Below are positions 18,622 to 35,910 of a stretch of DNA of 48,156 nucleotides, one piece after another. This DNA is from Chthoniobacterales bacterium (GTDB lineage: Bacteria > Verrucomicrobiota > Verrucomicrobiia > Chthoniobacterales > JACTMZ01). Numbering within the stretch: the first letter of the stretch is position 1; each line of letters starts with the position of its first letter. Below the pieces are notes generated by a model. It saw only the letters and a program-made list of their open reading frames with translations. It made no database searches and was not told where the DNA came from. The translations under genes and the position numbers were made by a program. Where the stretch lies: positions 1 through 48,156 of the forward strand of contig JBILDG010000001.1 of the NCBI GenBank assembly GCA_044352715.1, in the 5' to 3' direction.

Positions 18622-18884
18622 TACCGGGGATCAAGGCGACCCCGGTCCTGTTCGAGGACCTCCCGCGCCGTCGGCCCCGGCGCGGCGGCGGGGACAGCGT
18701 GCTTGAGCAGCGCGTCCACCCAACTCTCGGATTTTCCAGACTTTTTCTTGGCGCGCTTCTCCGGTTCTTGCAACCAGTTGCGGAACAGTTCGATGGTGAC
18801 CTCGCGCACCGCCCGACCTTCCAGCGCGGTCTTTGCTTTGACCCGGCGATAAAGATCATCCGGCACATCGATGGTTGCTTTCAT
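18621..18884 (-). CDS. vapB: VapB-type antitoxin
   Basis: 87 aa. MKATIDVPDDLYRRVKAKTALEGRAVREVTIELFRNWL is typical of small antitoxins encoded 5' of PIN toxins. It is translationally coupled to vapC. Confidence 0.7.
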   Translation of the reverse strand: MKATIDVPDDLYRRVKAKTALEGRAVREVTIELFRNWLQEPEKRAKKKSGKSESWVDALLKHAVPAAAPGPTAREVLEQDRGRLDPR

Positions 18885-18891
18885 GTTTTAC

Positions 18892-18919
18892 AGGTTACTG
18901 GTTCTTGGCGTGCTGTCAA
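18892..18919 (-). promoter_or_regulatory. Sigma70-type promoter of vapBC: TTGACA-N16-TAACCT, with the -10 hexamer ending 7 nt before the ATG
   Basis: The minus strand reads TTGACA (18919..18914), then GCACGCCAAGAACCAG, then TAACCT (18897..18892), then GTAAAAC, then ATG (18884). This implies a leaderless or near-leaderless mRNA. Confidence 0.55.
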
Positions 18920-19013
18920 TGGGAGCAGCCACAACCGTGCCGTGCGCGCCAGTTCCCATGACCCCACTTCAGAACCCTCGGCCGCGTTACCAGCAGGGAG
19001 AACCTAAGCAAAC

Positions 19014-19033
19014 ATAGTATCGTTCGATACTAT
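19014..19033. terminator. AT-rich perfect inverted repeat ATAGTATCG-TT-CGATACTAT; candidate terminator of the GH99-like gene, or an operator
   Basis: 9-bp arms with a 2-nt spacer. It lies 34 nt past the stop of the minus-strand gene at 19067 and is followed on the minus strand by GTTTGCTT. It is 130 nt upstream of vapB. Roughly 0.2 such palindromes are expected by chance in 48 kb. Confidence 0.35.
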
Positions 19034-19066
19034 TCATTGAGGGGGAATCACCCAACGAGTCAGCCG

Positions 19067-20272
19067 CTAAACGCAGACCGTGGCTCCCCGCTGCGCAGGG
19101 ACGAAGACGTCGCGCACGGCCTCAAGATAAGCCATGCCGTTGGTCGTGTCCGGCTCGAGGTAGCTGCCCTCGGTCCATTCGTTCCAACTGTTGATGTTGA
19201 GGATGCGGTGCGCGGCGGGTTCGCGGCGGAGACGTTCTTTGGTCAGCTCGAGCGCGCGGCGGAAACGATCCGGCGTGTTACCGGAAATGGTGTTGGTGAA
19301 AGGATAGCCGAAGTTGCCGAATTCATCCTCCTGATGCGCGCGGGGGCTGGAGTCCCAACCCATGGTGACGTTCGGATAATAGGGTTGGCGGAATTGCTCT
19401 TTGACCGTGTCCCAATGCGCAAAATAACTGTCGCGCGCCCGGTCGAAGTCGGTCTGCAAGTCGGGCAGGTCGATGTGGTGGATCCACACGTAGGAGGTCA
19501 CCGAATCGAAGCCGAGGCCGTCAATCAAACGTGGCACGTTGTCGATGACCACTTCGCCGGGCAGGACGGGTTTCCCCCAGACCACGGCGTTAAGATGCAG
19601 GTCGGGAAAACCGGCGCGGCGGGTTTTCTCGCGGAACTCATCCAGCGCCGCCCGCGTGCGAGCCGGCGAGTCGAAGCCGGCCAGCAACTGCGACAAATCG
19701 TAAAAGGAAAAATAAGGGCAACCCTCGAGCAGCCAATAAGACGGATGGGTAAAGTAGCGTTCGATGACCAGATCGCAGACTTTGTCGAAAGTCGCGGGCG
19801 TGACGGCGCCCGGATAGAGCAACTCGGCGGGGGCCCCGCGCTTGTAAGGATGGATGTCGACCCAGTCATGGTTGGCCCACATCAGGCCGAAGCGCAGGCG
19901 GTCGTTGTTGTCCGCCGCCATGAAACCCTCCTCGAGCGGACGTTCAAGAAAGAGGCCGTCGTTGTAATGATACCAATCGAAAATGAAGGCATCGATCCCG
20001 TGGTCGGCCGCGGCATCGATCTTGCGCGCCATGACCTTCGGGTCGGATTCGTCCTCGTAGCCCCAGAGTGGGACTTTGGGTTGCTCGTGCGCGGGGAAAC
20101 GGGGCCGGGCGGACTTGACCAGTTCCCACTCGGTCCACCCCGCGCCTCTCAGCGACTCGTTGCGGGGGTCGCTGGGGTGGTAATTGCCGAAGTAATAACA
20201 CGCGACGGTGATGTCATCCCCTTGGGCATCGGCGGACGAGAGCGGCGAAGTGGACGTGGCCTGATGCAACAT
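19067..20272 (-). CDS. GH99-like / WbsX-like domain protein (no signal peptide)
   Basis: VACYYFGNYHPSDPRNESLRGAGWTEWELVKSARPRFPAHEQPKVPLWGYEDESDPKVMARKIDAAADHGIDAFIFDWYHYN matches the characteristic WbsX (Glyco_tran_WbsX) N-terminal pattern. Confidence 0.75.
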   Translation of the reverse strand: MLHQATSTSPLSSADAQGDDITVACYYFGNYHPSDPRNESLRGAGWTEWELVKSARPRFPAHEQPKVPLWGYEDESDPKVMARKIDAAADHGIDAFIFDWYHYNDGLFLERPLEEGFMAADNNDRLRFGLMWANHDWVDIHPYKRGAPAELLYPGAVTPATFDKVCDLVIERYFTHPSYWLLEGCPYFSFYDLSQLLAGFDSPARTRAALDEFREKTRRAGFPDLHLNAVVWGKPVLPGEVVIDNVPRLIDGLGFDSVTSYVWIHHIDLPDLQTDFDRARDSYFAHWDTVKEQFRQPYYPNVTMGWDSSPRAHQEDEFGNFGYPFTNTISGNTPDRFRRALELTKERLRREPAAHRILNINSWNEWTEGSYLEPDTTNGMAYLEAVRDVFVPAQRGATVCV

Positions 20273-20306
20273 TTGATCACTGTAAACTCCTAGTGGCGGC
20301 TTTCTG

Positions 20307-20340
20307 TAACGATCCTGCCAAAACCCAGCACGATTGCGCC
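20307..20340 (-). promoter_or_regulatory. Bipartite direct-repeat element, copy e-minus (faces the GH99-like gene)
   Basis: The minus strand reads GGCGCAATCGTGC-TGGGTTTT-GGCAGGATCGTTA. After 22 nt comes TACAGT (20284..20279), then GATCAA, then ATG 20272. Confidence 0.6.
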
Positions 20341-20355
20341 GATTTTTGCCTCATT

Positions 20356-20389
20356 GGCGGAATCGTGCTGAGAAATGGCGCAAATGTTC
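20356..20389 (+). promoter_or_regulatory. Bipartite direct-repeat element, copy e-plus (faces the large GH-like gene)
   Basis: The plus strand reads GGCGGAATCGTGC-TGAGAAAT-GGCGCAAATGTTC. After 23 nt comes TACAAA (20413..20418), and 8 nt later an ATG at 20427 that opens a mini-ORF. The main ATG is at 20474. Confidence 0.45.
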
Positions 20390-20473
20390 CGGCGCCGCTT
20401 GGGCCCCCGTGTTACAAAGAGATCTCATGACCACACCCACCATTTTCACCGGCTGCATCCGGCACCCGAACCC

Positions 20474-23400
20474 ATGAGCCACCGGAAGCGCGGCGTCCTG
20501 TTTGCTTGGACAGAATGGCAGAACCCGTCCGCCGCTTACCGGGGCAAACCATTCTGGAGTTGGAACGGACACCTCGATCCCTCCGAGCTGATACGGCAGA
20601 TCGGCATTTTCCAGGAGATGGGCATGGGCGGATACTTTATGCACTCGCGCACCGGTCTGCAGACGCGCTACCTCGGCCCCGAGTGGTTCGATGCGATCAA
20701 TGCCTGCGCGGATGCCGGACAGGCGCGCGGTTTGGAATCCTGGCTCTATGACGAAGACCGCTGGCCGAGCGGCTCGGCGGGCGGGCTGGCCACGAAGGAA
20801 TTGCGGCATCGCATGAAATACCTGCGGCTGACCGTGCACGAGAGCGGCGAGACGCACAATTGGCCTGCGGCGGAACATTTCGTCGCCGCCTTCAGCGCCA
20901 AAGTGAGTGGCCTTGACCTCGGACCCTACCGCCGCGTCGAGTGTGGAGCCCGCGCTTTTCCCGGCGAGCAGCTGCTCGTTTTTGCGTGGGAATACATGCG
21001 CGAGCATTCTTTCTACAACGACACCGCTTACCTCGACACGATGGACCCCACGGCCACGGAGAATTTTCTGCGGGTGACGCATGATGCCTACCGCGAGGCC
21101 TGCGGCGAGCGGCTGGGGACGAGCATCCGCGGGATTTTCACGGACGAACCACATCGCGGGTTCGTTTTCTGTTCAAGCCACGGGCAACCCGGGGTGCCGG
21201 ATCCGGGTTGGACCACGCCTTGGACCCACGCCCTGCCGGAGGCGTTCGCGGCGGCATTCGGCCACGACCTCATCGACCGGCTGCCGGAATTGTTCCTGCG
21301 TTCGGACGGGCAACGCCTCTCGCCGGTCAAGTGGGCCTACATGGAAATCTGCCAGCGCCTCTTCCTCGAAAATTGGGCGCGGCCGATGCACGAGCGGTGC
21401 CGTGATCTCGGGCTCTTGCTGACGGGACACGTGCTGCACGAAAACAGCCTCGCCGCCCAGGCGGTGCCCTGCGGATCGATGATGCGCTACTACCCGTATC
21501 TCGATTACCCCGGCATCGACATCCTCGGCTCGCGCAACGAATGCCATTGGGTGATCAAACAACTCTCCTCGGTCGCGCGGCAGTTCGAACGTCCGTGGAT
21601 GCTCTCCGAGCTTTACGGTTGCACCGGATGGCAGACCGATTTCACGGACCACAAACGCATCGGCGACTGGCAGGCGCTCTTCGGCATCAATGTGCGTTGC
21701 CACCACTTGAGCTGGTATTCCATGGCGGGCGAAGCCAAGCGCGATTTCCCGGCCAGCATTTCTTTCCAGTCCGCGTGGTATCCGGAATACGCCGCGGTCG
21801 AGACCTACTTCAGCCGCCTGCATGTCGCCCTCACCGCAGGACGTCCGGTCTGCGATGTGCTGGTCATCAATCCGGTGGAAAGCACGTGGGCCCAGATCCA
21901 TGTCAACTGGGCAACGTGGTTGCAAGCGACCGACCCTGACGTGGAAGCGCTGGAGAAAACCTACGCGACCGTCTTCGCCGCGCTGGCCGGAGCCCAGATC
22001 GATTTCGACTACGGCGATGAGGCGCACCTCGCGGAACACGGTTCTGTCGATGCGACCAAAGCGACGCTACGGCTTGGAGCCATGCGCTACCGCGTCGTGG
22101 TCGTCGCCGGCGCGGAAACTCTCCGCGGATCCACCCTGCGATTGTTGCAGGAGTTTCGCCGGGCCGGGGGCATGGTAATCTTTGCCGGAGCGCCGCCGAC
22201 TCACTTGGATGCCCTGCCCTCGCCCGAGCCGGCGGAGTTCGCCATCAACGGTCCGACCGCACTGATCGATGGTCCGGCGCTGGCTGCCATGGTGCGAGAG
22301 CACAGCCCTGCCGCCCGCCAGCTCACGCTCGGCGAGGAAGGCGCGGGTCTTTTCTGTCAGATGCGGACCGACGGCAACACCTTCACCGCAGTGCTGCTCA
22401 ACTCATCGGACACACGTAACTATGACACCGTGACATTGCGCTGGCATCATTCCGGACCGGTGACCGAACTCGACGCACTGACCGGTCAGGCGGTCGCGGT
22501 TGAGACCATTCCCGAAGATGGCGGCATTTTGCGTTGGACGACTTCGTTCCGTCCTTTGCAGGAACGTATTTTCGTCTGCGGCGCGGCCGTGCCAGACGCC
22601 AAGCCCGCCGCCATGACTGCCATAGGACGAACCGAAGTTCTCGCGGGAGACTTTGCTTACACGCTCGACGAACCGAACATCGCGGTGCTCGACACGGCGG
22701 AGTTTTCCCTCGACGGCGGGGACTGGGAGGCAGCGCAGGAAATTCTCCGTGTGGAAAAATCTTTGAGCGAGCGCTTGGGAATTCCCCTGCGCGGTGGGCA
22801 GATGGTCCAACCATGGGCTCGGGAGGAATCCACGACCAACGGGGGAACCCAGTTGACTTTGCGCTTCCGCTTCGAGGTAGAGCATCTGCCAAAGTCGCCC
22901 GTCCAGCTGGCCCTCGAGCAACCCCATGAGTTCTCCATCACACTCAACGGCAAAAACATCCCGGCACCCTCGGGCGACGCATGGTTCATCGATCCATGTC
23001 TGTGCACCGTGACGCTGCCGCCCGACGCGCTGCAAACCGGGACCAACATTCTCGAGCTGCAATGCCGCTACCACGAAGGCATCGACCTCGAAGCCGTTTA
23101 TCTGCTGGGCTCGTTCGGTGTACGTCCGGGACCGGGCTCGCGCGTGACGCTGACGGAACTTCCGCCGCGACTCGGCGTGGGAGACTGGACGCGGTGCGGA
23201 TTGCCGTTTTATTCCGGGCGCATCCGCCTGCAACTGCCCGTTGGTTCAGCCCGAGGCCTCGCGTTGTCCCCGCAAGGTGCTGCCACGCTGGTGGCGCGGA
23301 ACCCCGCGAACGGGAAATCGCAAATCCTGCCGTGGGCACCATTCGCCTGCGATCTTGAAGGGTTGGTTGATGATCAGAGTATGGTCGAAGTCGAATGGGT

Positions 23401-23557
23401 CCTGACGCGACGCAATACCTTCGGCCCATTGCATCTCACGCCCATCGAACAACCGGCCATCGGTCCCACCCACTTCCGGAGCGAGGGCGACGAGTGGTCC
23501 GATGATTACCAACTCGTGCCTGTCGGACTCGAAAAATCCCCAATCCTCGAATCATGA
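20474..23557 (+). CDS. Large glycoside-hydrolase-like protein, about 1027 aa, no signal peptide (GH106-like is only a guess)
   Basis: Start at MSHRKRG (ATG 20474). The N-terminus reads YRGKPFWSWNGHLDPSELIRQIGIFQEMGMGGYFMHSRTGL...WLYDEDRWPSGSAGG...GIFTDEPH. It shares the motifs GGY, WL.D(D/E)..(W/Y)PSG.AGG and RG.(F/Y)..(D/N)EPH with the gene at 32921..35155. Confidence 0.6.
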   Translation: MSHRKRGVLFAWTEWQNPSAAYRGKPFWSWNGHLDPSELIRQIGIFQEMGMGGYFMHSRTGLQTRYLGPEWFDAINACADAGQARGLESWLYDEDRWPSGSAGGLATKELRHRMKYLRLTVHESGETHNWPAAEHFVAAFSAKVSGLDLGPYRRVECGARAFPGEQLLVFAWEYMREHSFYNDTAYLDTMDPTATENFLRVTHDAYREACGERLGTSIRGIFTDEPHRGFVFCSSHGQPGVPDPGWTTPWTHALPEAFAAAFGHDLIDRLPELFLRSDGQRLSPVKWAYMEICQRLFLENWARPMHERCRDLGLLLTGHVLHENSLAAQAVPCGSMMRYYPYLDYPGIDILGSRNECHWVIKQLSSVARQFERPWMLSELYGCTGWQTDFTDHKRIGDWQALFGINVRCHHLSWYSMAGEAKRDFPASISFQSAWYPEYAAVETYFSRLHVALTAGRPVCDVLVINPVESTWAQIHVNWATWLQATDPDVEALEKTYATVFAALAGAQIDFDYGDEAHLAEHGSVDATKATLRLGAMRYRVVVVAGAETLRGSTLRLLQEFRRAGGMVIFAGAPPTHLDALPSPEPAEFAINGPTALIDGPALAAMVREHSPAARQLTLGEEGAGLFCQMRTDGNTFTAVLLNSSDTRNYDTVTLRWHHSGPVTELDALTGQAVAVETIPEDGGILRWTTSFRPLQERIFVCGAAVPDAKPAAMTAIGRTEVLAGDFAYTLDEPNIAVLDTAEFSLDGGDWEAAQEILRVEKSLSERLGIPLRGGQMVQPWAREESTTNGGTQLTLRFRFEVEHLPKSPVQLALEQPHEFSITLNGKNIPAPSGDAWFIDPCLCTVTLPPDALQTGTNILELQCRYHEGIDLEAVYLLGSFGVRPGPGSRVTLTELPPRLGVGDWTRCGLPFYSGRIRLQLPVGSARGLALSPQGAATLVARNPANGKSQILPWAPFACDLEGLVDDQSMVEVEWVLTRRNTFGPLHLTPIEQPAIGPTHFRSEGDEWSDDYQLVPVGLEKSPILES

Positions 23558-24975
23558 AGCGTCACCCCAATATCCTTTTCATCAATCTCGACCAGATGCG
23601 CTACGACTGCCTGGGTTTCACGGGGCATCCGCTCGTCAAAACGCCGCACCTCGACGCCTTGGCGCGCTCGGGGATGCGCTTCGAGTCGGCCTACACCCCG
23701 TTCCCCGTCTGCGCACCGGCCCGGCAGACCTTGCTCACCGGCGTGATGCCCGAACAGCATGGCGGACTGTGGAACTTCGACCGCGGCGGCGGCCTGCCCA
23801 TCGGCGCTGCGGTGACCGCGGATCATTCGATCTGGGTGCAGCAATTGCGCGACGCCGGTTATCGCACGGCTTACCTCGGCAAATGGCATGTCCATCCCGA
23901 GGCCGATCCCACCGCCTACGGCTACGAAACCTACATCGAGCCGCCAACCAACGCCTACCGGCCGGAAAATCAGCAGCGTAAGTATGAGCTGGCCGATGAT
24001 CCATGGCCCGAGTTCCCCGTCGGGGCAGTCTCCACCCTCGATCTCGACCAAAGCGACACGCACACGTTGGCCGCCGAGTGTTGCCGCCTCATCGAGGAAT
24101 TCGGCAACGGCGGCGCGCCATGGCACATCCGGATCGATTACAACGAGCCGCATCTGCCGTGCCTGCCGAGCGAGCCTTTTGCCTCGATGTATCCGCCGGA
24201 ATCGATCCCAGCATGGGAAAATTTCGGCGACACCTTTGCCGGGAAACCCTTCATCCAGCAACAGCAACTCCGCAACTGGCGCATCGAAGCGTGGACATGG
24301 CGCGAATGGTCCATCTACCTCTCCGGATACTTCGGGATGATCAGCCAATTGGACGACGCCATTGGGCGGATCATCGAGGAACTGCGCTCCCGCGGGCTGA
24401 TCGACAACACCCTGATTATTTTCACCACGGACCACGGCGATGCGGCCGGCAGCCATCGCATGATGGACAAGCATTGCGTGATGTATGAGGAGGAGGTGCA
24501 CGTGCCGCTCGTCTGCTCGTGGCCCGGCGTCATTCCGGCCGGTGGCGTCTGCCGCGATTTCATCAGCCACTTTCTCGATCTGCCGGTGACCTTGCTCGAA
24601 CTGACCGGACTGTCCGTGCCCGCGCGTTATCAAGGACGCAGCTTCTTGCCGCAACTCGAGGGACGCGCCTCGGACGACCCGCGTCCCCTCGCCTTCAGTT
24701 CCTACAATGGTCAGCAGTTCGGCCTCTACTGCCAGCGCATGGTCCGCGACCGGAAATACAAATACGTGTGGAATGCCACGGACATCGACGAATGCTATGA
24801 CCTCGAGAACGACCCGCACGAGTTGGTCAATCTCGCCGCGGACGAACGCCACGAGGAGCTGTGCCGCCGCTACCGGCGAAAAGTCTACGACGTCTTCTCC
24901 GCCCTGAAAGATCCGCTCGTTTTGAGCCGCTGGAACGAGCGCTGGCTGCGCGACGGCACGACTTCCGCGAAATGA
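23554..24975 (+). CDS. S1-family sulfatase without signal peptide (predicted cytoplasmic)
   Basis: MKRHPNILFINLDQMRYDCLG starts directly in the sulfatase core. The motif is PVCAPARQTLLTG. An ATGA overlap joins it to the upstream gene stop (23554..23557). Confidence 0.85.
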   Translation: MKRHPNILFINLDQMRYDCLGFTGHPLVKTPHLDALARSGMRFESAYTPFPVCAPARQTLLTGVMPEQHGGLWNFDRGGGLPIGAAVTADHSIWVQQLRDAGYRTAYLGKWHVHPEADPTAYGYETYIEPPTNAYRPENQQRKYELADDPWPEFPVGAVSTLDLDQSDTHTLAAECCRLIEEFGNGGAPWHIRIDYNEPHLPCLPSEPFASMYPPESIPAWENFGDTFAGKPFIQQQQLRNWRIEAWTWREWSIYLSGYFGMISQLDDAIGRIIEELRSRGLIDNTLIIFTTDHGDAAGSHRMMDKHCVMYEEEVHVPLVCSWPGVIPAGGVCRDFISHFLDLPVTLLELTGLSVPARYQGRSFLPQLEGRASDDPRPLAFSSYNGQQFGLYCQRMVRDRKYKYVWNATDIDECYDLENDPHELVNLAADERHEELCRRYRRKVYDVFSALKDPLVLSRWNERWLRDGTTSAK

Positions 24976-26420
24976 AAACCATTCCCACCCTGCTCGCCGT
25001 CACCGGCGCACTGCTGACGACAGCCTTGGCCGCAACGAAGGACCGTCCGCCCAACATCGTTTTCATCCTCACCGACGATCTCGGCATTTCCGACCTCGGT
25101 ATCTACGGCAGCGATTACCACCTGACGCCTCGCTTGGATCGCCTCGCGGCGGAAGGAATGCGTTTCACCAACGCCTACGCGGCTTCGCCGGTGTGCTCGC
25201 CGACGCGGGCGTCCATCCTGACCGGACAGTATCCGCACCGCTTGCACCTGACCGACGCTTTGCCGTGGGACCGGTTGCCGGAAAACCCGCGGTTCGTCCC
25301 ACCCAACCACCTCAAGGAACTGCCCGCCTCCGACGCCACGTATGCGAAGTCCCTGCGCGAGGTCGGCTACCGCACCGCCCTTTTCGGCAAGTGGCACCTG
25401 GGCAACGAGCACGAGTTCTTTTCCGGCGGCCGCCATAGCGACTACGGCTTCGACGAGGCCTTCGACGCGGATTACCAAAAAATCAACAATGTGGACAAAG
25501 GCGTGGACACTCTCACGGAGCAAGCGCTCGGCTTCATCGAAAGCAATCGCGACCGCCCCTTTATGCTGGCCCTGCACCACCACACACCACACGTCCCGCT
25601 GGCCGTTCCCGCCGAATACCAGAGCCGCTATAACAACGTTCCGCCGGGCCAAAACCAGCAGGACAAGCAATATGCCGGCATGATATCCCATCTCGACGAT
25701 GCGGTGGGACGCCTGCTCGACAAACTCGACGAGCTGGATCTGACCAACAACACCATCATCATTTTCACCTCCGACAACGGTGGCCTGAGCGCAAAAACGA
25801 GCAATCTCCCTTACCGCGAAGGCAAAGCCACGCTCTATGAGGGTGGGATCCGTGTGCCGCTCCTCGTGCGTTGGCCCGCACAGATCAAACCCGGATCGGT
25901 GTGCGAGGGCGTCACAGTCAGCACCGATTTCTTCCCGACTTTTCTCGAGACGGCCGGGCTGCCATTACAACCGGACGCCCACCTGGACGGACAGAGCCTG
26001 ATCCCGTGGCTGCGCGGGGAAAAGCCCGATCCAACCCGCACGGTCTACTGGCACGTGCCCCACTACCGGCACAAAGGTCCGCAATCCGCCGTGCGCGACG
26101 GTGACTGGAAACTCATCCACAACATCGAGACGGACACGCATGAGCTCTACGATTTGGCCAACGATCCCGGCGAAGCGAACGACCTCGCGGCCGCGCAAGC
26201 CGAACGGACCAAGGAGCTGGCCGCCAAGCTCGAAAGCCATCTCGCCGAATCCAAAGTCCAACGCCTATGCCCGAATCCCAACTGGGACGCGAAGAAACCC
26301 CGCGGCCGCGTGTGGGAAATGGGCGTCTTCTATCCCAAGCAGGGTGGCGCCTTCCAACAGGTCAAAGACCGCGACTATCCCGCGTGGTTCCAGCACGCGG
26401 AGCCGGCGCGAAAACCCTAG
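24972..26420 (+). CDS. S1-family sulfatase (secreted)
   Basis: Start at MKTIPTLLAVTGALLTTALA (ATG 24972, ATGA overlap with the previous stop). Core PPNIVFILTDDLGISDLG and motif SPVCSPTRASILTGQYPH. Confidence 0.88.
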   Translation: MKTIPTLLAVTGALLTTALAATKDRPPNIVFILTDDLGISDLGIYGSDYHLTPRLDRLAAEGMRFTNAYAASPVCSPTRASILTGQYPHRLHLTDALPWDRLPENPRFVPPNHLKELPASDATYAKSLREVGYRTALFGKWHLGNEHEFFSGGRHSDYGFDEAFDADYQKINNVDKGVDTLTEQALGFIESNRDRPFMLALHHHTPHVPLAVPAEYQSRYNNVPPGQNQQDKQYAGMISHLDDAVGRLLDKLDELDLTNNTIIIFTSDNGGLSAKTSNLPYREGKATLYEGGIRVPLLVRWPAQIKPGSVCEGVTVSTDFFPTFLETAGLPLQPDAHLDGQSLIPWLRGEKPDPTRTVYWHVPHYRHKGPQSAVRDGDWKLIHNIETDTHELYDLANDPGEANDLAAAQAERTKELAAKLESHLAESKVQRLCPNPNWDAKKPRGRVWEMGVFYPKQGGAFQQVKDRDYPAWFQHAEPARKP

Positions 26421-26475
26421 CCGGTTTGGCCCTTCCGCCCTGCGCGCGTAGTTTCCTGCATCTGCTCGGCGGTCA

Positions 26476-28050: not shown

Positions 28051-29528
28051 GGCTTGGCCGCCCGCCGTTCGCGCAGGAGGGCTTGGATTTCCCTCACCCG
28101 TTCGCGGCTGAGACGGTAGCGGCTGAAAACGATCATGGCCGCGATGATGCAAGCGCTGGGGAAGAAGGCGATGAATAGACGCAGGCGGGTCAACGACTCC
28201 GGCGTCATCTTGTCGGCCCCGGCATCATAACCGATAAAGACCAGCGCGTAGCCGAGGGTGAAGGCGATGCCGGTGAACCCCAGCTTGACCACGAAGCCGA
28301 AGAAGGACGCAAAAATGCCCTCGCGACGGTAACCGTGCTGGAGTTCATCCTCGTCGCAGATATCGGCAAGGAAGGCACCGTTGAGCAGCCAGACGGCGGT
28401 CATGCCCCCGCCCATGAACACCGCGAGCACCAGCTGGAGCGCCGGCCAACCGGGGCGCAGCAGGAACCACGAACTCATGATGGCCAGCGCGGACAGCGCC
28501 ATGCCGGAGAGCAGAACCGTCTTTTTGTCGAAGCGACGCACGATCCGCGGGATAACGAACGTGGCAGCCAAAAGGGAGACAGCGGACGTGGTGCCGTAAA
28601 AACCGTTCCAGGTGGCACCGCTGCTTTTGTCGCCGCCGAAGATGTAAAAGATGTTGGCGTAGATGATCAGCGCCCCCATGAAATACACGCCGCAAATGAC
28701 GAAGAAGATCATCAGGCACAAGGTGCGGAACGAGCGGTTTTGCAGGGCCAGTTTGCCGGAGTGCAAAAGGTGGAGCTTGGCCTGGTCATGGACCTTCAGC
28801 CGTTCGCGGGCGAAGAGGGCGACAGGCAACGCGGTGACGGCTATAACAATTGCCAGCGCCCAAGCCAGGTAGCGGATACCCAGCACCTCGACTTTCACGT
28901 CGTCACTGGAGGCCATGTGCACGACCGGATGGAAGAGGAAGGAATACCAAGCGGTCTGGCCGGAAACGACAAACTCGCGGATGAATTCACCGGCACTCAG
29001 GCAAGCCTTGTAGAGCCACGGCAGGAGAAAAGCGGCCGCCGAGGCGAAGATCATGCGGTATTTCTGGACGTCAGCCCGCTCGTCGTAGTCCGAGGTCAAC
29101 TCCAGCCCCAGCGCGTAGTAGGGCACGGAAAAAACGGTATACATCAGATAGAAGAAGACGCAGGCCGTGACGGCATACGCGAAAAGGGCGGAATTTTCCC
29201 AGTAAGGCGACGCCATGTAGGAGACACCGAAGGCGAAGGCCATGAGCAATCCGCCGGCAAAAATGAACGGACGCCGCCGCCCGAACCGGCTGCGGCTGTT
29301 GTCCGAGATGTTCCCCATCACGGGATCGGAGATGGTGTCGAAAAACCGCGGGATAGCCACCGCCCACCCGACGAGGACGGAACTGAGGCCGAAGCCGATG
29401 TTGTAGATGGGGACAAAGAGAGTGTTCAGGCCGTTGGTCGCCATTTGCTCGCTGAAACCACCGAGGCCCCAGGCGATCTTTTCACGTCTCGGCAAGTGGG
29501 CGGCGCGGTCGTCGTGGGAGTGGGACAT
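28047..29528 (-). CDS. MFS transporter, GPH cation symporter family (paralog of 2953..4419)
   Basis: DTISDPVMGNISDNSRSRFGRRRPFIFAGG is the same signature as in the other GPH gene. The protein is polytopic, 493 aa. Confidence 0.85.
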   Translation of the reverse strand: MSHSHDDRAAHLPRREKIAWGLGGFSEQMATNGLNTLFVPIYNIGFGLSSVLVGWAVAIPRFFDTISDPVMGNISDNSRSRFGRRRPFIFAGGLLMAFAFGVSYMASPYWENSALFAYAVTACVFFYLMYTVFSVPYYALGLELTSDYDERADVQKYRMIFASAAAFLLPWLYKACLSAGEFIREFVVSGQTAWYSFLFHPVVHMASSDDVKVEVLGIRYLAWALAIVIAVTALPVALFARERLKVHDQAKLHLLHSGKLALQNRSFRTLCLMIFFVICGVYFMGALIIYANIFYIFGGDKSSGATWNGFYGTTSAVSLLAATFVIPRIVRRFDKKTVLLSGMALSALAIMSSWFLLRPGWPALQLVLAVFMGGGMTAVWLLNGAFLADICDEDELQHGYRREGIFASFFGFVVKLGFTGIAFTLGYALVFIGYDAGADKMTPESLTRLRLFIAFFPSACIIAAMIVFSRYRLSRERVREIQALLRERRAAKP

Positions 29529-29554
29529 AGATCAGGGCGCGGCGGGTGGTCTTT

Positions 29555-31387
29555 TCAGCGAAGGATCAATTCCACGGGATCCAAGGTCCAATCGTTGATC
29601 TCGCGAATGTTGCGGCCTCCGCTCCAGCCGAGAAGGATCTTCGCCTCGCCGGAACCTTTGGCGCGGTCCCAGCGGATTTCGACCGCACCATCCGGGGTCT
29701 TCGTGGCCTCGATCCACTCGTTGCCCGTCAGCACGACCGCGCTGGTCGCCACGGGCTCTCCTTTTTCATTCAGCAGTCGCACTTCACGCGTGCCGCGATC
29801 CTCATCCAAAGACAGGACCGCTTCTTCCAGTTTCAGCGCGGCTGGACGCGTCGGGGGCGCCTTGTCTCTCCGCGGGGTGCGCGGGGAGCCGGTGAAGTTT
29901 TCGTTGCGCAGAGGGATGAGGGCATCGGATTCGCGCAGGTGGTTTTCGATGAGAGCATCCAACGCGCGCACACGCTCGGGCCGATAGGCAGCCAGATTGA
30001 CCGCCTCGCCCGGATCGGCCGCCAAATCATAAAGCTCGTAATGGTGCGTGCCGGGTTCATCGCCGGCCCAGAAGAAGCGCAGAAGTTTCTCGTTCCCCAG
30101 CCGCACCGCGGACGAAGGTGCGCAGAGAATGCCGAAGCGGGAGGGAAAATCGAAAAAGAGCGGACGCTCCGGCAGGGAACCTCCGTCGAAAAGCGGACGC
30201 AAGCTCACACCGTCGACCGCTTGACCGGCGGGTAAAGGCACCCCGGCGTAATCGAGGATGGTCGGAAACAGGTCGGTCGACACCACGGGGACGTTGGAGA
30301 CCGTGCCGGGCTTGATGTGTCCGGGATATGCCACCACCCAAGGCACGCGCACCCCGCCCTCGTAGGTGTTGGCCTTGCCGCCGCGCAGCGGGCGGTTGGA
30401 GGTGACTTGTCGGCCGTTGATCTCGTCATGGATGACCCCGCCGTTGTCGGAGAGAAAGACAATCAGCGTGTTGTCGCGCAGAGCCTTGTTTTCCGGCTGG
30501 TCGAGGTAATCGAGCAAGACACCGACGCTCTGGTCCAGACTTTCCACCATCGTGCCCATGACGGGCGAATCGTGGAGGCCGCGCGGGTCTTTTTTGCCGC
30601 GGTATTTCTCGAGCAAGTCCTTGCGCGGGATGTAGGGCGAGTGCACCGCGTAAAGCCAGAGGTTGAGGAAGAACGGCCGATCCGAGTCCTTGACTTGGCC
30701 GATCCACTTCACCGCTTCCTCGACCAGGCGGTTGTCGAGATGCTCGCCCTCAGGACCCGCTTCTAGGCCGGGGATTTCGCTGCGGCGCTCTTGCTTGTTT
30801 TGCGGCCTGTTCGCATACGGGGAATAAAAATCCGGCGGACCCGGCGCATGGTTGCCGCCGATAACATAGTCGAACCCACGCGCTCCCGCATCGTAAGTCT
30901 CGGCGTTTTCCTCCACAGCATTGCCCGGGCGGCTGAGGTGCCACTTGCCGATGTGTGCCGTCTGGTAGCCGCTCTCCTTGAGCAGATCAGCCAGGGTACG
31001 CAGGTTGGCCGGCAGGTGATCGCGCGTCCGGATATCACCGACGTAACTCCCGTTCTCCGGAGGCAGCGCCGCGGGTTCGAAGACCTGACGCTTGGCCGTG
31101 ATGGCCTCGGTCAGGCGCAATCGCGCGGGCGATTGACCGACCATGATGCTGGCCCGCGTGGGTGAACAGAGCGGACTGGCCGCATAGCCGTCCGTGAAAC
31201 GCATTCCTTCATTGGCCAAACGCCGCAGGTTCGGCGTTTCATAATAGCCGGGCCCGTCCAGATCCGTGTCGGCCCAGCCGAGATCGTCGGCGAGGATAAG
31301 GATGATATTGGGGCGGTCCGCGGCGACCGCCGGGCAGACCAGAAAGAGAGCGGCGGCCAACGAAGACCAAATCAGGCGGGGAAACAT
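29555..31387 (-). CDS. S1-family sulfatase (secreted) with an extra C-terminal domain of about 117 aa
   Basis: Start at MFPRLIWSSLAAALFLVCPAVAA (ATG 31387). The ORF-track extension to 31960 overlaps the upstream gene. Core RPNIILILADDLGWAD and motif SPLCSPTRASIMVG. The tail follows a P/R-rich linker: ...LKLEEAVLSLDEDRGTREVRLLNEKGEPVATSAVVLTGNEWIEATKTPDGAVEIRW... Confidence 0.85.
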   Translation of the reverse strand: MFPRLIWSSLAAALFLVCPAVAADRPNIILILADDLGWADTDLDGPGYYETPNLRRLANEGMRFTDGYAASPLCSPTRASIMVGQSPARLRLTEAITAKRQVFEPAALPPENGSYVGDIRTRDHLPANLRTLADLLKESGYQTAHIGKWHLSRPGNAVEENAETYDAGARGFDYVIGGNHAPGPPDFYSPYANRPQNKQERRSEIPGLEAGPEGEHLDNRLVEEAVKWIGQVKDSDRPFFLNLWLYAVHSPYIPRKDLLEKYRGKKDPRGLHDSPVMGTMVESLDQSVGVLLDYLDQPENKALRDNTLIVFLSDNGGVIHDEINGRQVTSNRPLRGGKANTYEGGVRVPWVVAYPGHIKPGTVSNVPVVSTDLFPTILDYAGVPLPAGQAVDGVSLRPLFDGGSLPERPLFFDFPSRFGILCAPSSAVRLGNEKLLRFFWAGDEPGTHHYELYDLAADPGEAVNLAAYRPERVRALDALIENHLRESDALIPLRNENFTGSPRTPRRDKAPPTRPAALKLEEAVLSLDEDRGTREVRLLNEKGEPVATSAVVLTGNEWIEATKTPDGAVEIRWDRAKGSGEAKILLGWSGGRNIREINDWTLDPVELILR

Positions 31388-31425
31388 CAGGAGGCTACTA
31401 AAGCACAATCCACCCCACCCTTCCC

Positions 31426-31459
31426 GCACGATCCAGCCAAAAAGGAGCACGATTTCGCC
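31426..31459 (-). promoter_or_regulatory. Bipartite direct-repeat element, copy f
   Basis: The minus strand reads GGCGAAATCGTGC-TCCTTTTT-GGCTGGATCGTGC. After 23 nt comes TTTAGT (31402..31397), and 9 nt later ATG 31387. Confidence 0.6.
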
Positions 31460-31481
31460 AAGCAACCCCGGAAGGCGTGGA

Positions 31482-32924
31482 TCATGCTCGCGTTCTTCCG
31501 CCGACCAGATCGATCGGTCGCCCCGGAAATCCCGCTTCCCGCGTGTCCTCCGGCCGACGGCCGTCTGGCATGCGATAGCGCTCCGCCAGCGAATCCACAT
31601 CGACACCCCCCGGATCCCCGTAGTGGTCCATCCATTGCTGCGTGAGTTTTTCCATCCGCTCCTGCAAGGCGGTGTGCGCAGGGTCGCCGTAAAGATTGCG
31701 CAGTTGAAATGGATCCCCTTCCCGCGCGTAAAGCGCACGGACCGGAACCTTGCGCAACACCGCGCGGCCATTTTCGTCGCGCTGCCAGTGCGCCAACTCG
31801 CCGCGGCCGTAGCTGTGCTCGCGGGTGTAGACGCCATTCCAGGAAGGCTGGTGGAAAAAGAGGGGCACGGATTCCACGGCATCATCGTCGTGCTCGCGGA
31901 TGGCCCGTGAGAGATCGCGGCCCTCGCAGGTTGCCGGCACGGAGACCCCCAGCAAACCAAGCAGGGTGGGCATTAGATCCAGCGTCCCGACCAGCAGATC
32001 GCTCATCCGGCCGCGAGCTTCGCCCGGCAGATGCACGAGGAGCGGGACGCGCACGGAGGTGTCCTCGGGATGATCCTTCGAGATGGTGTAACCGTAGGAG
32101 TGTAAGTTGTCGCCGTGATCCGAAGTAAAGACAATGAGCGTATTGTCATAGTGACCGCGCGCCTTGAGTTGGTCGATGAGACGCCCGAAGGCGCGGTCGA
32201 TGCCGCTGCACATCGCGTAGTAGCCATGGTAGGCGCGTCGGATTTCCGGGGTATCCTCCGCGCTGGGACGCAGACGGATGGTCGCCGGATCATAGAGATC
32301 CATCAGATCCTGCTTCGTGCCGTAATCGAAGGTCATGGTTTCCGGGTCGAAGCCGACATCGTGCGGTGGATGCCACGAGACAAAGAGCGCGAAGGGTTCG
32401 TCCGCCCGGCAGGTATCGAGAAATTGCACCGCCTGCCGCGCCTGCCCGTCTACCTCCCATTCGTCGAAGAAAACTTTCAGTCCTTCCTTGTCCCAGTAGT
32501 AGCAATGCCCCGGACGGTAATCCATGTGGCAGTTGTTGCTCAGGAAGGTTTCGTCGAACCCGTGCCGTAGTGGACCCGGCGGCACCGGCCGGTCGCGGTT
32601 GCCGCCGAGCAGATGCCATTTGCCGACATAGGCGGTGCGGTAACCGGCCGCACCCAAGGCCTGCGCAAACGTCGTGCCGTTGTGGGCCAGCAGCGGAAGA
32701 TCATTGTGCAGCGCGCCGTGGCGGAGCGGATGCTGTCCGGTCAGCAGCATGCCGCGGTAAGGGGTGCAGACCGGACTGCTCGAAATGCAATGGTCGAACC
32801 GGATGCTCTCCGAGGCGAAGGCGTCGAGGCGCGGCGTTTTGATGTCCGCGTTGCCATAGCAACCGAGCATGTCCCGCGACTGCTGGTCGGTGAAAACGAA
32901 AAGAAGATTGGGACGCGCGTTCAC
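31482..32924 (-). CDS. S1-family sulfatase without signal peptide (predicted cytoplasmic)
   Basis: (GTG)NARPNLLFVFTDQQSRDMLG starts directly in the core. The motif is SPVCTPYRGMLLTGQHP. A GTGA overlap joins it to the upstream gene stop (32921..32924). Confidence 0.85.
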   Translation of the reverse strand: MNARPNLLFVFTDQQSRDMLGCYGNADIKTPRLDAFASESIRFDHCISSSPVCTPYRGMLLTGQHPLRHGALHNDLPLLAHNGTTFAQALGAAGYRTAYVGKWHLLGGNRDRPVPPGPLRHGFDETFLSNNCHMDYRPGHCYYWDKEGLKVFFDEWEVDGQARQAVQFLDTCRADEPFALFVSWHPPHDVGFDPETMTFDYGTKQDLMDLYDPATIRLRPSAEDTPEIRRAYHGYYAMCSGIDRAFGRLIDQLKARGHYDNTLIVFTSDHGDNLHSYGYTISKDHPEDTSVRVPLLVHLPGEARGRMSDLLVGTLDLMPTLLGLLGVSVPATCEGRDLSRAIREHDDDAVESVPLFFHQPSWNGVYTREHSYGRGELAHWQRDENGRAVLRKVPVRALYAREGDPFQLRNLYGDPAHTALQERMEKLTQQWMDHYGDPGGVDVDSLAERYRMPDGRRPEDTREAGFPGRPIDLVGGRTRA

Positions 32925-35155
32925 TGCTGCTGCAGCAGCATGCTGCGCAACGGGCCGATCTGCAACGGCAGCGGCGCGGTCGCTTCGCGGATTTCGCCCG
33001 TGGTCGGATCCATCACGGTGACCGGGCCGCTGCCGCCCACCTGCACGGCGAGGTCTTGTTCCTTCTTGTTCATGACGAAGTAGATTTTCTTCCCGTCGCG
33101 GTGGAAACGCGCCACGCCGAGTTCCGCTGTGCCGGGCGTGAAGGTCAGGTCGAACGCCGGACTGTATGCTTGCCCGATGAGCGCGGGAAGTTCACCGGCC
33201 GCCATGGGACGGGCGGCAGCCAGGGCTTGGCGGACCGCTTCATCATCGCGCGCGTAGAGGGCGGCCGAAGGAACCTCATCCACCCATATCACCTTTCCCC
33301 CGGCAGCTTCGAAAGCCTCGATCTTGCGGAGGACATCGAAGGGCAGCAGGTCCGTCGGCGGGATGACCAGCACGCGATAGGAACCGCGCCCGATGCGGAG
33401 GCGACCGTCTTCGATCGCCGCTTCGGCCACGGCCTGCGGGTGGACGACACTGAAGTCGATGTCGGCCGACGTGAGCGTTTCATCGATGGTTTTCCACGGC
33501 TTCTCGAAATCGGCGAATTCCTTTTGCAGTTTGCTCCAGTGCCGGTTGGTCGGACGATACAGGCCCTGGAAGCGGGAGATGGGATAATAGACGGCCACCT
33601 CGTTCTCCCGTCGCGCCCCGCGCAGGACCAGCGAGAGACGGCCGATGTATTCATTGAAAGCGCGGAATTCCTCCGGTGTGTAACCGGCGGCCTTGCGGCC
33701 GCGTCCTCCAGCGTCCGGGGTGTCGACCGGATCGAGCGGGAGGTAGGAGGAAAACGAATTCACGCCGTGGAAAAACAGCCAGTTGGCCGAGTTGAGCAGC
33801 AACGGAATCTCCGGGGAAAGTCGCTTCATGCCGCCGCCGGCGATGATTGGATCGAGCAGGACGATCACTTCGTCGCGGTCCTTCCATTCCGCGATGGAGC
33901 TGCAGAAACGGGCTTGCTCATAGTGGAAGGAATCGAAGCGGTCGCGGTTGGGGATACCGATGTCCATGGCCGGCACGTCGAACTCGGCCGCGAAGAGCAG
34001 CAGGTCCCCGTAACAGGGCACGTGCAGCGAGGGATACTCGTCGTGCAGGAAATGGCCGCTGGAGGAAACACCGCGCGCCTCGCACCATTTGTGGATTTGC
34101 TCGGCGAAGTTGGCGCGGAGCAATTCGGCGACCGTCTGGTGGAAATGCGTGCGCACCCGGCGCGACTCGAGATCGTCGCCCGCGAAGAGACGCGGCAACT
34201 GTGGCATCAGGTCGTAGCCGTGCATGGCCGCAAACTTGGCCGGGATCTCCGCGTTCCACGACACGCAGGCAAACGGGCCATCGGCCATGATCCAGTGCAA
34301 CTGCATGAGGTGCGGCTCGTTGGCGTAAAAGCCTCGCGCCTTCTCCTGCAGCGCGCCGGATTCGACGGAGATCGGCGTGTGCATGATCTCGAGGAAGCTC
34401 TTTACCGCGTCGGGATTGAGCAGGTCGGGATAGCGCCCGCTGTGTTTGAATTGGGCCATGGTGCTCTGCGCTTGGACATCGCGGTCGCGAATGACGGTGA
34501 AGAAGGCGTGCAGTTCCCACGGTCCATCCACTCCTTCGGCGGTGACTTTCCCGTTCTCCACGTTGACCGTGGCTCCCTCCGCCGGTTGCAAGCCATCGGG
34601 AGTCACGCGATAAAGCGCGGCCGAGACGAAGCGCTCCGCGCCTGGGGGCAGGTCGATGTTCGCCGGGACAATGCCCTCCCCTTTTTGGCTAACCGTGGCC
34701 AGACCCCGCACTTCGTATTCCGGATTTTTTTCCACGACCTTGCCGCCCGCCATGCCGCTCGGGTAGCCGAAGTCATCGGCCAGCCAGACCGGGGCGTCCT
34801 GCTCCTGCGCTCGGGCCAGGAGAGGCCCGATGTTCTTTCGCCCATCGGGCCCCGATTGATAGAGTTCACCGTGGAAAAACGCCATGTAGCCGCCGATGCC
34901 GTATTCGGGATATTGCTTTAGCGTTTTGTCTTTCAGCCCGTATTTGATGAGCCGGTAGTTGTTGGGCGGATCGGCGAATTCTTTGGCGAAAGTCTCCTCT
35001 GCAGTGACAGGCGTAGCCGCTGCCGCGGGCGTCGCGTCTGCCACCGGTTCCTCGGATGAAGCGAGAGACTCGGCGGGAGGACGGGAACAAGCGGTCACCA
35101 TGCCCAAGGCCAGCGCCGCGAAAAGAATTCGTCCGGTGAAGAGAAGGAGATGCAT
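32921..35155 (-). CDS. Large glycoside-hydrolase-like lipoprotein, paralog of 20474..23557 (family unassigned; GH106-like is a guess)
   Basis: Start at MHLLLFTGRILFAALALGMVTAC (ATG 35155, lipobox-like). The TTG at 35206 lies inside regulatory element c. Shared motifs are GIGGYMAFFHG, WLADDFGYPSGMAGG and RGFYANEPH. Confidence 0.6.
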   Translation of the reverse strand: MHLLLFTGRILFAALALGMVTACSRPPAESLASSEEPVADATPAAAATPVTAEETFAKEFADPPNNYRLIKYGLKDKTLKQYPEYGIGGYMAFFHGELYQSGPDGRKNIGPLLARAQEQDAPVWLADDFGYPSGMAGGKVVEKNPEYEVRGLATVSQKGEGIVPANIDLPPGAERFVSAALYRVTPDGLQPAEGATVNVENGKVTAEGVDGPWELHAFFTVIRDRDVQAQSTMAQFKHSGRYPDLLNPDAVKSFLEIMHTPISVESGALQEKARGFYANEPHLMQLHWIMADGPFACVSWNAEIPAKFAAMHGYDLMPQLPRLFAGDDLESRRVRTHFHQTVAELLRANFAEQIHKWCEARGVSSSGHFLHDEYPSLHVPCYGDLLLFAAEFDVPAMDIGIPNRDRFDSFHYEQARFCSSIAEWKDRDEVIVLLDPIIAGGGMKRLSPEIPLLLNSANWLFFHGVNSFSSYLPLDPVDTPDAGGRGRKAAGYTPEEFRAFNEYIGRLSLVLRGARRENEVAVYYPISRFQGLYRPTNRHWSKLQKEFADFEKPWKTIDETLTSADIDFSVVHPQAVAEAAIEDGRLRIGRGSYRVLVIPPTDLLPFDVLRKIEAFEAAGGKVIWVDEVPSAALYARDDEAVRQALAAARPMAAGELPALIGQAYSPAFDLTFTPGTAELGVARFHRDGKKIYFVMNKKEQDLAVQVGGSGPVTVMDPTTGEIREATAPLPLQIGPLRSMLLQQQ

Positions 35156-35191
35156 CGGGTAAAAGTAGACGACCGGCAACTCAACCCGCCA

Positions 35192-35239
35192 TGACGATTC
35201 CGCCAATTTTCAGCACGATTCGGCACCAACGATTCCGCC
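35192..35239 (-). promoter_or_regulatory. Bipartite direct-repeat element, copy c, plus an extra upstream repeat
   Basis: The minus strand at 35225..35192 reads TGCCGAATCGTGC-TGAAAATT-GGCGGAATCGTCA. A third repeat, GGCGGAATCGTTGG, lies at 35239..35226. After 24 nt comes TACTTT, then TACCCG, then ATG 35155. Confidence 0.6.
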
Positions 35240-35265
35240 GTGAAAAATGACGGCAGTGCCGCGCC

Positions 35266-35838
35266 TTAAGACGAAGGCGTGACTTCGATGGTGACGTTGC
35301 CGATGCCGGGGTATCCCTTGACCGCCCAAAACTGGATGGTCACCCACGTGCCGGCCGGCACCTTGGTCGCCACCAGGCGCTGGGCGCCGGCGGCTTGGAA
35401 GCTCTGCTTGGCCAGAACGGGATCCCCCCCGTTCGCGCGGGCGTTGACGATCGCCGCTCCCATCCAGAACTCCTCCTCCCCGAAGCCAACAGTGTCAAAG
35501 GTCAGCGTGACATCCGACATCTCGGCCAAAACGCCGAGTTCCTGCTTGAAGGCGTAGAACTCCGGCTTGAGCCGACTTAGCACGCGCAGGTTGGCTGCGA
35601 TACCGGCCGCCCCCATCTTGCGCACGGTGTAAAAGTCACTGTCTTGATCCTGCGGCGGGGCTGCCGTCCAGCCTGTCGGAACACCAGAGTACCAACCCGG
35701 ATGCTGGAGGGGGGACAAACCATCCATGTTGCTGAAGTCACCGTTGATCACGGCCAGCGCGTCGTCCTCTGCCGCGGTGGCAGAGACTAACGCAAGAACA
35801 CCAAGAGCAGGGACAAGGAGGAGGGAACGAATGCTCAT
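35266..35838 (-). CDS. Small secreted protein, CBM/DUF642-like jelly-roll (family guess)
   Basis: 190 aa. The signal peptide is MSIRSLLLVPALGVLALVSATAA. It is followed by VINGDFSNMDG...GW...VTLTFDTVGFG...WVTIQFWAV...NVTIEV. Confidence 0.6.
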   Translation of the reverse strand: MSIRSLLLVPALGVLALVSATAAEDDALAVINGDFSNMDGLSPLQHPGWYSGVPTGWTAAPPQDQDSDFYTVRKMGAAGIAANLRVLSRLKPEFYAFKQELGVLAEMSDVTLTFDTVGFGEEEFWMGAAIVNARANGGDPVLAKQSFQAAGAQRLVATKVPAGTWVTIQFWAVKGYPGIGNVTIEVTPSS

Positions 35839-35876
35839 AGTGATTCAATCTACAGCCCGTGATGTGGCGACCGCGC

Positions 35877-35910
35877 GCACGATTCCGCCAAAATCCCGCA
35901 CGTTACCGCC
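35877..35910 (-). promoter_or_regulatory. Bipartite direct-repeat element, copy d (best match to the consensus)
   Basis: The minus strand reads GGCGGTAACGTGC-GGGATTTT-GGCGGAATCGTGC. After 24 nt comes TAGATT (35852..35847), and 8 nt later ATG 35838. It begins 10 nt downstream of the AraC gene stop. Confidence 0.6.

Follow-up and report, generated by a model that had tools for sequence, protein, structure and literature searches.

What decides where transcription and translation begin in a polysaccharide-degradation locus whose start codons are not preceded by Shine-Dalgarno sequences? The question is raised by a stretch of 48,156 nt from a Chthoniobacterales bacterium of the Verrucomicrobiota (the window; contig JBILDG010000001.1 of assembly GCA_044352715.1), in which a 33-nt direct-repeat element lies upstream of a set of genes and is followed at a nearly fixed distance by a TAnnnT hexamer and, in many cases, by a start codon just behind it. 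An initial annotation of this sequence took the geometry to mean activator-dependent promoters that make leaderless or near-leaderless mRNAs. We think it probable, if well short of certain, that the whole arrangement is explained as follows: the element is the operator of a RhaS/RhaR-like regulator, the promoters that it serves have only a TAnnnT hexamer, their transcripts are leaderless, and short upstream open reading frames (uORFs) couple translation to the main gene. Contigs and loci other than the window are referred to by L numbers.

In the orientation of the genes, the element reads GGCGGAATCGTG-N9-GGCGGAATCGTG and consists of two 12-nt direct half-sites with a periodicity of 21 bp. Each half-site contains the conserved blocks GGC and CGTGC, with about one helical turn between them. 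A scoring matrix was derived from the five copies in the initial annotation, and 100 Markov resamples of the window served as the null. Seven matrix matches in the window score 25-42, compared with 16.9 for the next best site and a resample maximum of 22.4; two of the seven, a and b, are additional to the five used to build the matrix. All seven are intergenic and oriented toward the downstream gene:

594-626, minus strand: element copy a, found with the matrix and absent from the list in the initial annotation
18145-18177, minus strand: element copy b, found with the matrix, the weakest copy, after the vapC stop codon and upstream of a LacI-family gene
20308-20340, minus strand: element copy e-minus, back to back with copy e+, 15 bp between the two
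20356-20388, plus strand: element copy e+, matched by the matrix
31427-31459, minus strand: element copy f, 22 nt past the stop codon of the upstream sulfatase gene
35193-35225, minus strand: element copy c, matched by the matrix
35878-35910, minus strand: element copy d, GGCGGTAACGTG-N9-GGCGGAATCGTG, 10 nt past the stop codon of an AraC-like gene

The motif GGC-N5-CGTGC-N8-GGC-N5-CGTG, present in the seven window copies and in more than 30 copies elsewhere, has the bipartite direct-repeat form of AraC/XylS binding sites.

The hexamer is locked to the element. The window, the orthologous loci and a strict pattern scan run on metagenome contigs together gave a cross-genome set of 39 non-redundant high-scoring elements. 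In 25 of these, TAnnnT begins at +23 to +25 past the element (in 17 exactly at +23), compared with a background near 0.3 per offset, and ATG has a mode at +35 to +39 past the element (17/39), which is 6-9 nt past the hexamer. The fixed geometry of element, hexamer and ATG put forward in the initial annotation is thus borne out beyond chance. Its spacings for c, d, e-minus, f and vapB also proved correct when re-read from the sequence; as it had taken the element to be 34 nt long, the element-to-hexamer spacings given here are 1 nt larger. The predicted promoters in the window are:

565-570, minus strand: predicted -10 TACATT of promoter a, with ATGATG 3 and 6 nt further on
18117-18122, minus strand: hexamer TTCAGT of promoter b, 17 nt before a 65-codon open reading frame (ORF)
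20279-20284, minus strand: predicted -10 TACAGT of promoter e-minus, 6 nt before ATG 20272
20413-20418 (or TTACAA at 20412-20417), plus strand: predicted -10 TACAAA of promoter e+, 8 nt before the uORF ATG 20427
31397-31402, minus strand: predicted -10 TTTAGT of promoter f, 9 nt (AGCCTCCTG) before ATG 31387
35162-35167, minus strand: predicted -10 TACTTT of promoter c, 6 nt before ATG 35155
35847-35852, minus strand: predicted -10 TAGATT of promoter d, 8 nt before ATG 35838
18882-18919, minus strand: promoter of a vapB-like antitoxin gene, TTGACA-N16-TAACCT-N7-ATG (TTGACA 18914-18919, TAACCT 18892-18897, ATG 18884), independent of the element

If the hexamer is a -10 box (-12 to -7), the element covers about -68 to -36. 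Relative to this predicted -10, the proximal half-site ends at about -35/-36 next to a poor -35, as in AraC/XylS-type promoters. The first 6 nt past the element, which form the -35 slot, read CGCGCG, ATGGCG, ACAGAA or CCGGCG and never resemble TTGACA, in agreement with the poor -35 positions noted in the initial annotation. The element, the CGCGCG slot and the hexamer are conserved between orthologues; the region upstream of the element is not. The distance from element to hexamer is unchanged even where the ATG lies 13-67 nt further off, so the hexamer is a feature of the promoter rather than of the region where translation starts. The 201-nt intergenic region between the divergent e-minus and e+ genes (20273-20473) is fully taken up by ATG-6-TACAGT-23-element-15-element-24-TACAAA-8-ATG; with two elements and two hexamers in place, there is room for no other promoter. 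A sigma-70 consensus scanner called none of the promoters listed above, vapB included, an expected outcome where a -35 is missing. The vapB promoter had been described as a textbook arrangement, and its -35 is indeed perfect, but its -10 matches TATAAT at only three of six positions, which accounts for the silence of the scanner in this case.

The proposed candidate for a protein that binds the element is encoded directly beside copy d:

35921-36889, minus strand: RhaS/RhaR-like AraC-family regulator of 322 residues, with an N-terminal cupin domain and two C-terminal helix-turn-helix motifs; its stop codon lies 10 nt from copy d

Pfam matches to AraC_binding and HTH_18 fall within 35921-36973. 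The best full-length NCBIfam match is RhaS, with 127 bits against an equivalog cut-off of 288; RhaR models give 77-89 bits against cut-offs of 363-525. Residues 24-114 match the N-terminal effector domain of RhaR (PDB 5u93, E = 2.4e-11). Orthologues with 63-89% identity lie directly upstream of an element in nine independent loci (L118, L120, L121, L124, L128, L131, L149, L161 and L167), so that a cognate AraC-family gene occurs together with the site, as is characteristic of AraC/XylS systems. The element also precedes further WbsX, GH106, sulfatase, PEP-CTERM and N-methyl genes in orthologous loci, and in L124, where three elements occur, no other regulator is encoded within 10 kb. Few of the regulator's homologues have a named source; these include proteins from Terrimicrobiaceae and other Verrucomicrobiota. 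Judged from these sequence relationships, the 33-nt element is most likely the binding site of the adjoining AraC/RhaS-like activator. Activator dependence of the promoters, as claimed in the initial annotation, is well supported because the 21-bp direct repeat, the locked TAnnnT and the lack of a usable -35 coincide with an adjoining RhaS/RhaR-like gene both here and in the orthologous loci.

Whether the transcripts are leaderless depends on the start codons of the target genes, which are as follows:

19067-20272, minus strand: gene e-minus, WbsX family (GH99-like), 401 residues, Pfam domain from residue 24
20474-23557, plus strand: main e+ gene, GH106-like, 1027 residues; the closest public protein is 99% identical over its full length and also has 1027 residues
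29555-31387, minus strand: gene f, sulfatase, 610 residues, signal peptide from M1
32921-35155, minus strand: gene c, GH106-like alpha-L-rhamnosidase lipoprotein, 744 residues, signal peptide from M1, same start in the public gene call
35266-35838, minus strand: gene d, secreted protein of 190 residues with no Pfam match, signal peptide from M1, in-frame TGA two codons upstream, same start in the public gene call

We regard the predicted start codons of c, d, e-minus and f as secure. In e-minus, the Pfam domain begins so early that the start cannot lie further downstream, and the length of the closest public protein fits ATG 20474 as the start of the main e+ gene. The hexamer ends 6 nt (c), 8 nt (d), 6 nt (e-minus), 9 nt (f) and 7 nt (vapB) before the start codon, all within the range of about 5-9 nt associated with leaderless starts, and the 6-nt gap at c puts the A of ATG 35155 at the canonical +1. 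The uORFs described below show similar gaps, 3 and 6 nt at a and 8 nt at e+. In orthologues the gap is still 5-9 nt, despite divergent N-terminal residues. For c, d, e-minus, f and vapB, taking the predicted starts as they stand, leaderless or near-leaderless is the best reading; across genomes this part of the initial annotation applies to only about half of the element-linked promoters. Leaderless transcripts, as deduced from position, would be common in the regulon rather than a rule.

The lack of Shine-Dalgarno sequences had been offered as a further argument. None is found before the ATGs of the element-linked genes, but the observation has no weight as an argument: GGAG, GAGG or AGGA occurs at -18 to -4 in only five of 56 called starts in related loci of this lineage, and is absent from the other 51. 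Shine-Dalgarno scarcity is lineage-wide, and absence at these ATGs is therefore not diagnostic. Akkermansia species and strain IMCC26134 are listed among the Shine-Dalgarno-scarce Verrucomicrobia (PMC10783764). In Akkermansia, Cappable-seq assigned 10% of transcription starts to leaderless transcripts and revealed -10 boxes of the TATAAT type (PMC4782308). Upstream regions throughout the window and in L118-L131 have hardly any Shine-Dalgarno motifs and are often rich in C and A and poor in G, for example cctcccccctcccatcccccacactccccctcccATG, as seen before position 6557 of L124.

Several observations weigh against the explanation given at the outset. The start codon lies no more than 9 nt past the hexamer in only about 19 of the 39 promoters; the gap is 13-14 nt in four, 16-29 nt in 11 and at least 35 nt in three, and is unclear in two. 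The remaining copies imply 5' untranslated regions (5'UTRs) of about 6-60 nt. The hexamers TTTAGT of f and TTCAGT of b lack the A at position 2, and gene f can also be reached by read-through from the c promoter. GTG, TTG and even ATA are found at the homologous start position in some orthologues; in model bacteria these are poorer leaderless start codons. A count of TAnnnT-to-ATG gaps over all long ORFs of the window and six related loci, a statistic suggested in the initial annotation, gave a weak, about two-fold excess at 5-9 nt; it is not informative because many spurious ORFs in the GC-rich DNA blur the signal. Finally, a high-scoring element in L165 (2076-2108) adjoins a divergently oriented AraC-family gene (2140-2997) that is only 34% identical to the window regulator, which is either a paralogue with shared DNA specificity or a neighbour of an element whose true regulator is encoded elsewhere. 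The regulator assignment is thus strong, not exclusive.

Three of the window copies show a different arrangement. The start codon next after the hexamer at a, e+ and b does not belong to the main gene but to a short ORF, whose stop codon overlaps the main start; the ORF of the main enzyme or regulator follows 50-200 nt later. These short ORFs are:

478-561, minus strand: uORF of a, 27 codons, ATGATG at 561/558; its TGA (480-478) overlaps the sulfatase ATG 481-479 (ATGA)
20427-20477, plus strand: uORF of e+, 16 codons (MTTPTIFTGCIRHPNP, followed by the stop codon); its TGA overlaps the main ATG 20474 (ATGA)
17902-18099, minus strand: ORF at b, 65 codons; its TAA overlaps the probable LacI start ATG 17902 (TAATG)

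Along with the regulator gene and copies a and b, these coupled uORFs go beyond the initial annotation; in particular, ATG 20427 at e+ opens a uORF, not the enzyme gene. Among ten promoter-proximal short ORFs of the window and its relatives, nine end overlapping a long-ORF start or 1 nt from it, compared with 0.01-0.33 per case in a conservative shuffle null. The e+ uORF arrangement recurs in four genomes, with ATG and 16 codons in the window, GTG and 16 in L172, ATG and 16 in L165, and GTG and 21 in L181. In the relatives, such uORFs lie at L120 1156-1185, at L128 4516-4582, at about 2435-2503 of L181, and in L165; the overlaps seen in the set are ATGA, TAATG and TGATG. The GTG homologous to the e+ uORF start is simply in frame with the enzyme in L166 and L179. 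What is kept is the position of the uORFs and not their peptides, which have no obvious amino-acid-sensing content. That the frame stays open all the way between the predicted 5' end and the main start, regardless of peptide sequence, is best accounted for if ribosomes start at the 5'-proximal codon and reinitiate at the overlap. We consider these coupled 5'-terminal short ORFs in a Shine-Dalgarno-scarce phylum the most interesting lead from this locus.

The following model of binding, activation, effector, transcription starts and translation mode is drawn from the sequences and spacings, from how well these are conserved, and from the joint occurrence of regulator and element. A dimer of the regulator, probably with L-rhamnose or a rhamnose-containing oligosaccharide, would bind both GGC-N5-CGTGC half-sites. 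With the site at about -68 to -36, the proximal monomer would contact the sigma subunit of RNA polymerase at the usual -35 position, and the polymerase would in this way be recruited to promoters with no more than a -10 hexamer, TAnnnT. Members of the regulon would be rhamnosidases, sulfatases, MFS sugar transporters, secreted proteins and a LacI-family regulator. Transcripts from the c, d, e-minus and f promoters, and independently from that of vapB, would have their first base at the start codon or no more than about 3 nt away and would be translated in leaderless fashion. At a, e+ and b, ribosomes would load at the 5' end and pass to the main gene by termination-reinitiation.

The main alternative, to which we give a small but real chance, keeps the activator and drops leaderless translation: the promoters would be activator-dependent, the true starts would lie a few nt before the ATG, and translation would be Shine-Dalgarno-independent on unstructured, G-poor leaders of any length. 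The five Shine-Dalgarno-like 4-mers in 56 called starts and the listing of Verrucomicrobia as Shine-Dalgarno-scarce (PMC10783764) are as expected from such a mode of translation. It also accommodates the continuous range of hexamer-to-start gaps, from 3 to 67 nt, and the variation among d orthologues between gaps of 8 nt and of 13-14 nt. Leaders of any length do not predict, however, that the ATG should have a clear mode 6-9 nt past the hexamer, with 17 of 39 in a 5-nt window. A hexamer-to-ATG mode of this kind is the reported signature of leaderless genes elsewhere. Nor is it easy to explain why short ORFs are kept from a hexamer-proximal start to the main start with a stop-start overlap, unless the 5'-proximal codon is used.

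We consider it improbable that the element is instead an operator or RNA element within a longer 5'UTR, with promoters further upstream, a hexamer that is not a -10 box and a regulator that acts as repressor or roadblock, or else a repeat that works at the RNA level. Some AraC-family proteins do repress as well, and copies d and f lie directly behind co-oriented genes, so that read-through transcripts must include them. But TAnnnT is locked to the element across genomes while the region upstream is unconserved, and between the divergent genes e-minus and e+ upstream promoters would not fit. Gene d is separated from element c by a terminator-like hairpin with a T-run behind it (35250-35262, minus strand), suggesting that d and c are separate transcription units. 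An Rfam scan of the window returned no matches, and the element and leaders are thus not a known RNA family. A 21-bp-phased direct repeat ending at about -36 is, in addition, the standard position of an activator (PMC4514859). That the repeat is an alternative-sigma promoter, either for sigma-54 (-24 GG / -12 GC) or for an extracytoplasmic function (ECF) sigma factor (GGAAC / CGT), is very improbable: the half-site TGGCGGAATCGTGC superficially resembles TGGCAC-N5-TTGC and includes GGAAT and CGT, but its GG-to-GC spacing is 1 nt short for sigma-54, GGAAT and CGT of the two half-sites are 21 nt apart instead of 16-17 nt, there are always two phased copies, the conserved TAnnnT at +23 would go unexplained, and the window contains neither a sigma-54 enhancer-binding protein gene nor an ECF sigma gene.

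Activation by a RhaS/RhaR-like protein and leaderless translation, which we favour, can be compared with known systems. In E. coli, RhaS/RhaR sites occupy -32 to -81 and are built of inverted 17-bp half-sites with 16-17 bp between them. The window regulator resembles these proteins in its best full-length match (RhaS), in its RhaR-related cupin domain and in its putative targets, rhamnosidases and sugar transporters; it differs in scoring below the NCBIfam equivalog cut-off and in being associated with direct instead of inverted repeats. In the leaderless mRNAs of Actinobacteria, Deinococcus and Akkermansia, TAnnnT ends about 6-7 nt before the start codon. The window genes share with them a gap of 6-9 nt, the lack of a Shine-Dalgarno motif and AUG as the preferred start codon, but here the geometry, predicted from sequence, is bound to the regulon of one activator. 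The closest parallels for the promoters are AraC at araBAD (I1-I2), XylS at Pm and MtlR at PmtlE, which likewise have bipartite direct-repeat half-sites with a 21-22 bp period, from about -70 to about -36, and a weak -35 (PMC4514859). The XylS site is TGCA-N6-GGNTA-N6-TGCA-N6-GGNTA; MtlR has its blocks at -72 to -58 and -50 to -36 (PMC4514859). As in these systems, the regulator gene stands beside its targets and encodes an N-terminal cupin/ligand domain and two C-terminal helix-turn-helix motifs. Unlike them, the present system has the recognition sequence GGC-N5-CGTGC, belongs to an uncultured freshwater Verrucomicrobium, apparently akin to Terrimicrobiaceae, with at least seven sites in 48 kb, and has predicted promoters so near the coding sequence that no leader remains. 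The uORFs are comparable to the leaderless first-cistron short ORFs and ATGA coupling of mycobacteria, which also have a short ORF at the predicted 5' end and overlapping stop and start codons (bioRxiv 10.1101/834739, PMC12548453). They differ in being from Verrucomicrobia, in having unconserved peptides and in their proposed role, which would be ribosome delivery and not attenuation.

Each component mechanism is already known, and the locus is a clean new example, not a new kind. It offers a ready-made regulon, with an operator motif, a regulator and about seven promoters in 48 kb, for the degradation of sulfated rhamnose-rich polysaccharide by an abundant, uncultured freshwater lineage of Verrucomicrobia. 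The motif can be used to correct miscalled start codons, for example those at L118 3126 and 6817 and at L124 18075. The locus could also serve as a test system for start-codon choice in bacteria without Shine-Dalgarno sequences, by a 5'-terminal AUG or by a 5'-terminal short ORF with stop-start coupling. A bolder idea, which we put forward tentatively and would give a minority chance of being right, is that start-codon choice throughout this sugar regulon is set by the promoter: the activator would place the transcription start on an AUG, and, where the enzyme ORF starts further downstream, a short leaderless 'starter' ORF of arbitrary sequence would take up ribosomes at the 5' end and deliver them to the main start via an ATGA or TAATG overlap. 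If true, this would be a regulon-wide design rule joining transcription-factor geometry to translation initiation.

By its gene content, the window is a polysaccharide-degradation locus of the sulfated rhamnose-polysaccharide type. It encodes many sulfatases, GH78 and GH106-like alpha-L-rhamnosidases, a WbsX/GH99-like protein, MFS_2 sugar transporters and SASA/GDSL esterases, together with PEP-CTERM, PATR and N-methyl-motif proteins typical of Verrucomicrobia. Regulators of the LacI, GntR and AraC families are present, as is a vapBC-like toxin-antitoxin pair. Adjacent operon genes frequently overlap by 4 nt (ATGA), for example at 23554-23557 and 32921-32924. An exact protein match assigns the window to a freshwater metagenome contig of 120 kb (JGI 3300036399, Ga0334993_0000043). 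The G+C content of the window is about 62% and drops to about 53-58% past 36 kb. In L176, GFO_IDH_MocA and SBP genes replace the GntR, SDR and enolase genes that lie upstream of the AraC-like gene in the otherwise near-identical L175. The gene swap and the drop in G+C content beyond the AraC-like gene point to a recombination breakpoint on the 5' side of the regulator.

Some orthologues have unusual start positions. The c orthologue in L149 has ATA at about 2555-2560 where others carry ATG. One of two paralogues in L124 (17988 vs 19457) has TTG (TTGAATACAAAA vs ATGAATACAAAA), and the public gene call starts elsewhere. The short ORFs of L139 and of L172 (element at 1250) are remnants of a partly deleted WbsX gene and were left out of the clean evidence on uORFs. 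In both the L139 3052 region and the L172 1250 region, the remnant lies behind an intact element and promoter; in L139, it overlaps a response-regulator gene (ATGA), which is thus now under control of the element.

Minor features of the element itself remain to be described. An additional half-site, GGCGGAATCGTT, lies at 35228-35239, upstream of element c and 14 bp out of phase. It was considered as a third operator site, but is missing in four orthologous promoters and is probably a local duplication. Positions 35911-35920, between the stop codon of the AraC-like gene (35921-35923) and element d, hold a run of eight G in gene orientation, and at the equivalent place the orthologous contig L171 terminates with 11 or more G; the run may reflect a homopolymer of variable length or a breakpoint in the assembly. 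The element was also considered as a mobile repeat (repetitive extragenic palindromic or similar to a miniature inverted-repeat transposable element), a reading rejected since all copies are intergenic, oriented toward genes at a fixed distance, and travel with the regulator gene. The strict DNA-pattern scan of metagenome contigs returned 42 loci, about two thirds of them genuine. With a looser pattern of 18 specified bases applied to genome contigs, the matches listed were mostly chance hits in unrelated phyla, and among them only L075, from an Akkermansiaceae genome bin, seemed genuine. The Bacteroidota contigs L078 (Marinilabiliales; 1154-1270) and L141 (3869-3985) contain tandem arrays of at least four 21-bp units, GGCAAAATCGTGCTCAATGTT, that closely resemble the half-site. 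These arrays may serve as binding sites of a related regulator, either of the AraC type or a hybrid two-component one.

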